Source of the DNA: Escherichia coli
Lineage (GTDB): Bacteria; Pseudomonadota; Gammaproteobacteria; Enterobacterales; Enterobacteriaceae
Direction: 5' to 3' (one strand)
DNA length: 1,837 nucleotides
NCBI RefSeq assembly: GCF_003334355.1
Contig: NZ_QOWP01000079.1
The notes beneath the pieces were generated by a model. It was not told the origin of the DNA and did no database searches. It saw only the letters and a program-made list of their open reading frames with translations. Shown one piece after another: positions 87-1,064 of the stretch. Numbering within the stretch: the stretch's first letter is position 1; every line of letters starts with the position of its first letter. A program made the position numbers and the translations under genes.

Positions 87-1064
87 ATGGGGGATACCCC
101 TGTCGACCTATCAAACACGGTAAAAGCTATCGACAATCAGATTGCCGTGTTAAGCCGCCCGGGCAAATCTCAGGATAGAGCCGCGGTAAAAGTCTTGCAG
201 CAATTTAAAGACGATATCACCAGCGGACCCAATGACCTGCGTCTGGCGAGAGAAAACAGAACTGACCTTCGAAAGCGGTTCATGAATTCAAACGAGACTG
301 TTGATAAAGACACGCTCCAGAAAGCCAGCGATATTGTCTACAAGGCATATACGCTGGATATGAGAAGGGCAGTAGCCCAGAAACTGGGTTCAGAAGAAGC
401 AGCCAATATGGCAAGGGTTGATCGCTCATGGTCTAAATTCAATGACATGATGGGAAGAACGCGCGTTCAAAAGGCAATAGCCAGCGGCAAGGCCACGCCT
501 GAGGATGTAACAAAACTCGTGTTTAGCCAAAGCCCATCAGAACGTTCTCAGCTTTACAGGCTTCTGGATGACAATGGTAGGCAAAACGCACGAGCAGCCA
601 TAGTTCAGAATGCTGTAGATAAGGCGACTGATCCGTCTGGAAATATCAGTGTTGAGAAGTTTATTAATGCGTTACACCGGAACAGGAAGCAATCAGCAAC
701 TTTCTTTAAAGGCGTGCACGGAAAGGAACTGGACGGCATTATTAAATACCTCAACGATACCAGACAGGCGGCAAAGGTTGACGGTCAGAAATTAAACAGC
801 CAGAAACTTTATGGCCTGCTGGTTGGTGGAGGCGCTATAAATGCGGCAGTTCTGGCGGGGATGCTGAAAACGGCTGCGTTTGTTGTTCCTGCTGCTGGTG
901 CTTTAGGCGGAGCAGCGAAGGCATACGAAAGCCCTGTTATACGAAATGCCTTATTACGTCTGGCAAATACGCCAAAAGGTAGCACAGCATATGACAGAGC
1001 GATCAGTACAGTCACACAATCACTGACCACAGCAGCACAAGCATCGCAAAAGGAAGCTCAATAA
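87..1064 (+). CDS. Hypothetical protein, 325 aa, hydrophilic N-terminal region and C-terminal Gly/Ala-rich hydrophobic hairpin (residues ~241-277); possibly 5'-truncated or promoter-disrupted by the adjacent IS
   Basis: Uninterrupted 978-nt ORF from ATG 87 to TAA 1062..1064 with protein-like composition throughout. In-frame stops upstream lie inside the IS. No canonical SD within 15 nt upstream of the ATG, which is only 9 bp from the IS terminus. By hand count, 12 of 23 Arg codons are AGA/AGG and there are 4 ATA Ile codons. No family assignment possible from sequence alone. Confidence 0.7.
   Translation: MGDTPVDLSNTVKAIDNQIAVLSRPGKSQDRAAVKVLQQFKDDITSGPNDLRLARENRTDLRKRFMNSNETVDKDTLQKASDIVYKAYTLDMRRAVAQKLGSEEAANMARVDRSWSKFNDMMGRTRVQKAIASGKATPEDVTKLVFSQSPSERSQLYRLLDDNGRQNARAAIVQNAVDKATDPSGNISVEKFINALHRNRKQSATFFKGVHGKELDGIIKYLNDTRQAAKVDGQKLNSQKLYGLLVGGGAINAAVLAGMLKTAAFVVPAAGALGGAAKAYESPVIRNALLRLANTPKGSTAYDRAISTVTQSLTTAAQASQKEAQ

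Follow-up and report, generated by a model that had tools for sequence, protein, structure and literature searches.

The open reading frame (ORF) at positions 87..1064 of a 1,837-nucleotide (nt) sequence of Escherichia coli (contig NZ_QOWP01000079.1; hereafter the window, by which we mean the whole stretch of DNA analyzed) is a fragment of a gene for a phage-type DNA-ejection protein and not a functional member of the gp16 family. We consider it very probable that the ORF is the dead 3′ end of such a gene from a phage-inducible chromosomal island (PICI) of the EcCIMP1 family, severed by an insertion sequence (IS), and that its codon bias reflects this ancestry. In the sequence-only reading of the window, the ORF had been taken for a gene with atypical codon usage, which suggested horizontal acquisition from a phage, plasmid, or island. 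As described below, the codon signal and the horizontal origin were borne out; the ORF as a whole gene was not.

Window positions 78..1762 are 100% identical to positions 15001..16685 of L001, a sequence of E. coli 510016. In this strain, the DNA corresponding to 79..1064 (L001 15002..15987, 100% identity) lies in frame within the 701-amino acid (aa) coding sequence WP_097346595.1, annotated as 'injection protein'. Codons 374-376 are represented by their last 8 nt (79..86), and 87..1064 comprises codons 377-701 plus the stop codon. The ATG at 87 corresponds to an internal Met codon (Met377) within the intact gene of 701 codons. What had been regarded as a gene thus amounts to the 3′ 46% of that gene, encoding the C-terminal 46% of its product. 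The fragment matched phrog_770 ('DNA transfer protein') at profile positions 325-667 of 668 with an E-value of 2.3e-91, and the intact 701-aa protein matched the same profile over residues 19-700 with an E-value of 2.7e-155. In tblastn, 100% of the length of the 701-aa protein aligned with Sf6 gene 13 and ST64T gene 16 at 31-33% identity, the E-values against the gp16 genes of Lederbergvirus being about 1e-76 to 1e-81. The closest phage relative was ORF13 of Escherichia phage N7 with 64-66% identity. The gp16 homologue comes after gp7 and then gp20 in N7, Sf6, and ST64T, and in L001 a 488-aa 'phage DNA ejection protein' of the gp20 type (PF16928 Inj_translocase) ends where the 701-aa gene begins. 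Because the phrog_770 and tblastn matches are full-length and the gene follows a gp20-type gene, the intact gene is assigned, by homology and gene order, to the gp16-type ejection protein genes. As a homologue of P22 gp16 and Sf6 gp13, its product would leave the virion and help the DNA across the cell envelope.

Exact and near-exact forms of the 701-aa protein were found on hundreds of contigs, and the gene is intact in most of the carriers. A Gly/Ala-rich hydrophobic stretch near the C-terminus is kept in the 325-aa fragment. No domain was detected in the 701-aa protein by hmmscan against Pfam-A at E <= 0.001, and a precomputed match of the gene to PF26808 (Phage_P22_gp16), graded 'faint', is on record. 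NCBIfam gave no match for either of the two window proteins or the intact 701-aa form, a PDB sequence search with the 701-aa protein returned no match, and PADLOC yielded no hit for the two window proteins. Three candidates were set aside. The minus-strand ORFs of 34-73 aa overlapping 87..1064 were treated as shadows of the coding frame, the plus frame being confirmed by protein homology. The 355-aa 'ash family protein' that represents the 90%-identity cluster of the ORF bears no BLASTP similarity to it, and we regard this assignment as a clustering artifact. A complete phage was rejected as the origin: no phage record holds the DNA, the megablast matches are IS ends, and the best phage protein is the above-mentioned one of N7.

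The features in the window are as follows.
79..1064, plus strand: remaining 3′ part of a gene for a phage ejection ('injection') protein of the gp16 type, assigned by the identity to the 701-aa coding sequence, phrog_770, and tblastn.
87..1064, plus strand: the ORF, 325 codons plus TAA.
1..78, minus strand: left end of an IS3-family element of the IS629/IS1203 type (copy A), 97.4% identical to an IS end in L002.
1761..1837, minus strand: right end of an IS629/IS1203-type element (copy B), 100% identical to an IS end in L002.
1065..1123, no strand: AT-rich spacer between convergent genes, 30.5% GC by composition.
1124..1564, minus strand: intact 146-aa gene, PGAP coding sequence WP_223201782.1 (L001 16047..16487).
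1565..1760, no strand: DNA upstream of the 146-aa gene; the identity to L001 extends as far as window position 1762.

Both ends of the window belong to copies of the same type of IS. An Stx2a phage (L002) contains a 1309-bp IS, the final 78 nt of which (L002 2732..2809, in the orientation of the window) differ from positions 1..78 at 2 of the 78 sites; its initial 77 nt (L002 1501..1577) correspond to positions 1761..1837. The 25-nt terminal inverted repeats, in which 54..78 pairs with 1761..1785 (88% complementary), start with TGAACCGCCCCGG, and the start ATG of orfA in copy A is the reverse complement of 22..24, with the peptide MTKNTRFS on the minus strand at 1..24. From this terminus and the orfA start, we take the element to be IS629/IS1203. 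Matches to the IS ends number in the thousands among E. coli and Shigella records, with the annotation 'IS3-like element IS1203 family transposase' (PGAP, PLSDB). The body of copy A lies left of the window and its transposase reads leftward, away from the ORF; the body of copy B lies right of the window and its transposase also reads leftward, toward the 146-aa gene. Copy A ends directly at the gene fragment, 8 nt before Met377, copy B is inserted 196 nt upstream of the neighboring minus-strand gene, and the two copies in the same orientation bracket a remnant of 1,682 bp (79..1760). The same IS-segment-IS structure was found in the Logan contig L008, and the Logan contig L006 (five samples) has the left junction only. 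As L006 bears the left junction alone, we suggest that copy A was inserted first and that the two insertions were sequential.

Altogether, an intact 701-codon gene would have sat after a gp20-type gene in the ejection cassette of an EcCIMP1-family island, an IS629/IS1203-type element would have removed or separated its first 373 codons together with the native promoter, and a second copy in direct orientation would then have bracketed the remnant on the far side, upstream of the minus-strand gene. A consensus scan of the window for promoters and terminators gave counts no higher than those in shuffled sequences and none near the ATG at 87, and no Shine-Dalgarno match can be read in the 8 nt before this ATG. 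Since the promoter and 373 codons are gone and neither a promoter-like site nor a visible ribosome-binding match was found near the ATG, we infer that the fragment 87..1064 is most likely not expressed. A clean ATG-to-stop ORF beside an IS end may be the tail of a longer gene, and such an ORF should not be annotated as a gene. The 237-aa minus-strand ORF at 1124..1837 was rejected as a gene; its open frame extends from the IS end and continues into the 146-aa gene. The arrangement of IS, remnant, and IS has the layout of a composite transposon, and recombination between copies A and B would delete the bracketed segment. We regard it as less likely that the fragment and the adjacent secreted protein gene are mobile as a unit in the form of an IS629 composite transposon.

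Of the 5,426 complete E. coli genomes, 124 carry the unique part of the window (79..1760), with a match to at least 80% of the window, and all other matches in E. coli genomes were IS ends only. This patchy presence and the phage homology confirm the segment as accessory and horizontally moving DNA, as the sequence-only reading had proposed. Among the sources considered there, phage and island were supported, and plasmid was not: no true plasmid carries the unique segment, the lone 'plasmid' record covering it being 4.9 Mb long, evidently a misfiled chromosome, and 92% identical, and other plasmid hits were IS ends. In L001 and L003, an island of ~18 kb surrounds the uninterrupted 701-aa gene. 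This island comprises, in order, genes for a tyrosine integrase, a helix-turn-helix/AlpA regulator, an AntA antirepressor, a DUF4222 protein, and ash/Icd proteins; then a Zn-ribbon/Toprim/DUF927 primase, the gp20-type and gp16-type proteins, and the 146-aa protein; and then variable cargo (e.g., Abi_2), a PerC regulator, and a pRiA4b-ORF3 protein. Thus, the search of the genomic context for mobile markers, which had been recommended, was successful, with integrase, AlpA-type regulator, antirepressor, primase, and PerC found beside the uninterrupted gene. The gene content fits that of a PICI, with an integrase, an AlpA-type regulator, and a primase-replicase, no capsid, tail, or lysis genes, and a size of about 10-20 kb.

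EcCIMP1 is a PICI of E. coli MP1 mobilized by the P22-like phage Kapi1, and its induction and transfer by this helper have been demonstrated experimentally (ISME J 2025, PMC11773190). The 'DNA transfer' genes of EcCIMP1, located downstream of the primase gene, resemble helper-phage proteins, and the authors suggested a role in packaging (PMC11773190). In E. coli 510016 (L001 2451..2861, 21301..21937, and 21987..22296), the island interrupts a DNA-methyltransferase gene of a lambdoid prophage. Just downstream is a prophage tRNA cluster, which includes a tRNA with anticodon CAU annotated as tRNA-Ile by PGAP (the ATA-reading kind), Lys(UUU), Thr(UGU), and Gly(UCC); no tRNA-Arg(UCU) was found in this cluster. 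In MP1, a related island is located at the chromosomal tRNA-Thr next to proA.

For the codon usage, E. coli 510016, which carries the uninterrupted sequence, was picked as the host model because window positions 78..1762 are 100% identical to many E. coli chromosomes. The reference consisted of 135 annotated, intact chromosomal genes (38,650 codons) in four 50-kb stretches of this genome, and the codon adaptation index (CAI) was referred to the ribosomal-protein genes, the operons of which are included in those stretches. By direct count, the 23 Arg codons of the ORF are divided into AGA (7), AGG (5), CGT (3), CGC (3), CGA (3), and CGG (2). AGA/AGG thus accounts for 12/23 (52%) and CGN for 11, so that the earlier hand count of about 12 in 23 proved exact. 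The 13 Ile codons are ATT (5), ATC (4), and ATA (4), in agreement with the 'several' ATA codons noted before (31%). The codons are indeed rare in core genes, as had been assumed. AGA and AGG constitute 4.8% of the Arg codons and ATA 5.4% of the Ile codons in the pooled reference genes, and 81 of the 135 have neither AGA nor AGG. Against these pooled shares, the binomial probability of at least 12/23 AGA/AGG is 1.2e-10, and that of at least 4/13 ATA is 4e-3. Only a single reference gene, the small fimbrial gene ydeR (4/7), reaches the AGA/AGG share of the ORF; none of the 61 length-matched genes (200-500 aa) does so, and among the reference genes with at least 15 Arg codons the top share is 0.38 (hipA). 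AGA and AGG together amount to 36.9 per 1000 codons in the ORF as opposed to the reference maximum of 25.

The other indices are less deviant. The GC content of the ORF is 48.2% (45.6% for the window overall). Its GC content at third codon positions (GC3) is 45.5%; the value of 0.455 compares with a reference median of 0.545, and 18 of the 135 genes are lower (13th percentile). The CAI is 0.328 against a median of 0.442, with eight of the 135 genes lower (6th percentile), and Karlin's codon-bias distance is 0.41 against a median of 0.352, with 44 of the 135 genes higher. The rare-codon signal is real, large, and far beyond chance, while GC3 and CAI are merely in the lower tail. The refuting condition proposed with the sequence-only reading, codon statistics within the core-gene distribution, therefore gave a split outcome: the AGA/AGG and ATA shares are outside of the reference distribution, and GC3 and CAI, the two indices recommended for the check, are inside its lower tail. 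The rare Arg and Ile codon shares and the pattern of presence and absence flagged the gene; GC3 and CAI alone would not have done so. It is textbook knowledge that AGA, AGG, and ATA, rare in E. coli, mark phage- and island-borne genes.

AGA/AGG is distributed evenly along the 701-codon gene, with 8/17 of the Arg codons in the lost N-terminal portion as compared with 12/23 in the fragment. A high content of AGA/AGG is typical of the late genes of P22-like phages. The proportions of AGA and AGG among the Arg codons in the genes and islands compared are as follows.
N7 gp16: 18/42.
Sf6 gene 13: 12/36.
ST64T gene 16: 10/39.
Sf6 tailspike: 13/21.
Rest of the L001 island: 60/253.
Unrelated genomic island: 50/146.

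At the 30 Arg positions common to the 701-aa protein and its N7 orthologue, no conservation of the rare-codon sites was detected (7/8/6/9, Fisher P = 1.0). As the choice of AGA/AGG is independent between the orthologues at their common Arg positions, we infer that the bias belongs to the general composition of the gene pool of phages and islands, and this argues for ancestry rather than position-specific selection. The AGA/AGG and ATA content would have been inherited from the P22-like pool, which is AT-richer and not tuned to the abundant tRNAs of the host, and the bias, spread over the whole gene, would be no signal with a function of its own.

Several points weigh against the interpretation as we put it. 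Neither IS junction was detected in the complete RefSeq E. coli genomes or, by exact search, in the species-representative genomes (one per species); the junctions were found solely in the Logan read-set assemblies L006 and L008. The window ends within both IS copies, so that the 5′ part of the gene may survive on the other side of copy A, as after a simple insertion, or may have been deleted, and the source genome may or may not keep the rest of the island. The silence of the fragment is read from its sequence. Finally, AGA/AGG is more frequent in the 701-aa gene (20/40) than in the rest of the island (60/253; Fisher P = 0.001), and ancestry alone does not fully explain the excess of the gene over its own island. 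The same excess can be put forward for an alternative in which the rare Arg and Ile codons were selected to throttle or condition the translation of a low-copy virion protein via the scarce argU, argW, and ileX tRNAs. Rare Arg tRNAs have been proposed to modulate protein synthesis for other phage genes, and a tendency of this kind is also seen in the N7 orthologue (18/42 versus 35/124, P = 0.09). However, besides the lack of conservation in the positions of the rare codons between the orthologues, Sf6 gene 13 is no richer in them than its neighbors (P = 0.42), and in the same phages the tailspike, mnt, and oac genes are at least as rich. For the copy in the window, which is truncated, the issue is moot. 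We therefore consider such selection improbable. The opposite view, in which the codon pattern is an effect of chance or amino-acid composition in an ordinary chromosomal gene, can cite GC3, CAI, and Karlin's distance, all inside the reference distribution, and the high AGA/AGG content of chromosomal ydeR, hipA, ydeS, and ydeO. Nevertheless, those genes with high shares are of the fimbrial, toxin-antitoxin, or low-GC kind themselves, the segment is missing from 98% of the complete E. coli genomes, and the relatives of the product are phage virion proteins. Together with the binomial probability for Arg and the length-matched comparison (0/61) given above, the distribution, homology, and codon comparison refute this view, to which we assign practically no probability.

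One more alternative concerns the ORF itself: translated from the ATG at 87, the 325-aa ORF would be functional by itself as an accessory gene, for instance for a C-terminal membrane-active domain of the ejection protein hindering incoming P22-like phages. An ORF of the same 325 aa from the same Met arises independently in a frameshift allele of the 701-aa gene (L003 8874..10978, L004 2078..4182, and L005 1298..3402), in which a T7 run is shortened to T6 at about codon 317, leaving two 325-aa ORFs, the second of which starts from Met377. Moreover, phrog_29117 ('head morphogenesis'), a profile of 327 positions, matches the 325-aa fragment end to end and corresponds exactly to the stand-alone form, and the fragment retains the Gly/Ala-rich hydrophobic C-terminal stretch. 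On the other hand, gene callers pick up every long ORF that a frameshift leaves behind; phrog_29117 may be composed of such fragments and is probably explained by the frameshift allele. In most carriers, on hundreds of contigs, the gene is intact, with the ATG at 87 as an internal Met codon, and in the window the 8 nt separating this ATG from the IS end offer neither a promoter-like site nor a visible ribosome-binding match. The transposase of copy A reads away from the ORF, and the PADLOC search mentioned above lends no hit to a role in defense. A stand-alone function is thus very improbable, and we retain the dead 3′ fragment of an ejection protein gene as the explanation. The window represents ordinary debris of mobile DNA: the kind of gene and the island family are already known, and many genomes contain annotated genes that match the sequence with 100% identity.

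The remnant is followed by the AT-rich spacer 1065..1123, in which the consensus scan found no terminator-like site, and by the 146-aa gene. The GC content of this gene is 40.6%, and ATA accounts for 4/13 of its Ile codons. The N-terminus of its product resembles a signal peptide (…LLFASFGANA/ECW), and the protein matches phrog_2651, a family of unknown function, with an E-value of 1.7e-22. In tblastn, it showed 29-34% identity to sequences of phages 434, Sf6 (gene 38), HK446, and Emek. The distant relative in phage 434 and lambda imm434 is next to cI and annotated as 'repressor protection protein', and that in Salmonella phage Emek is located just after gene 16. The phage 434 relative is presumably hex. 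The 146-aa gene may be a prophage 'moron' concerned with exclusion or lysogeny. In its upstream region, positions 1597..1760 fall within a stretch 94.7% identical to EcCIMP1. A palindrome, GTTGCAAAA-AG-TTTTGCAAC, at 1741..1760 directly borders the insertion point of IS copy B and lies about 180-200 nt ahead of the 146-aa gene. In the original island, this palindrome could have served as an operator or terminator, or it could be a site that the IS prefers for insertion. Separately, an inverted match of 19 nt (18/19 bases) was observed between 441..459 and 1264..1282. Both arms are in the coding frame, encoding N-x-M-M-G-R in the plus-strand ORF and in the minus-strand gene, and the chance expectation of such a match in a window of this size is about 1e-3 by a rough estimate. 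Rfam returned for the window only sub-threshold chance matches to eukaryotic or viral families.

Three known systems can be compared with the window. The first is IS629/IS1203 of the IS3 family: the window ends match both ends of the annotated 1309-bp element, of which just 78 nt and 77 nt are carried in the two copies. The second is the third ejection protein of Lederbergvirus, represented by P22 gp16, Sf6 gp13, and ST64T gp16, to which the gene is alike in full-length alignment, in phrog_770, and in its position after gp20. In contrast to the complete gene of this family, the window holds codons 377-701 only, and the intact gene resides not in a complete phage but on a satellite-type island devoid of capsid, tail, and lysis genes.

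The third is EcCIMP1 (L016), which differs from the L001 island in the cassette between primase and PerC, swapped between L001 12387..16519 and L016 12531..18678. The L001-type cassette contains the 488-aa gp20-type gene, the 701-aa gp16-type gene, and the 146-aa gene, whereas that of EcCIMP1 encodes a DUF2824 protein, a 225-aa protein, a 439-aa gp20-like ejection protein, a 906-aa protein with a transglycosylase domain, and a 232-aa protein. BLASTP detected no similarity between the 701-aa and 906-aa proteins, or between the small downstream proteins of the L001-type cassette and EcCIMP1. We tentatively raise the idea, which we consider rather unlikely, that EcCIMP1-family islands carry interchangeable P22-type ejection cassettes, one version combining gp20-like and gp16-like proteins with a small secreted protein and that of EcCIMP1 combining DUF2824, gp7-like, and gp20-like proteins with the 906-aa protein. 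The products would be loaded into helper capsids or would poison those of the helper, the window being a decayed, IS-bracketed copy. The preservation of an intact 701-aa gene on hundreds of E. coli contigs would fit a working function, and if the idea holds true, the delivery proteins of the satellite itself would be matched to the type of helper. A swappable helper-type ejection cassette on a phage satellite is a modestly interesting lead, albeit one lying outside of the window. The portions from the integrase gene to the primase gene and from PerC to pRiA4 are common to EcCIMP1 and the L001 island with 94-98% nucleotide identity, and the two islands share the same backbone gene order and several identical protein accessions.

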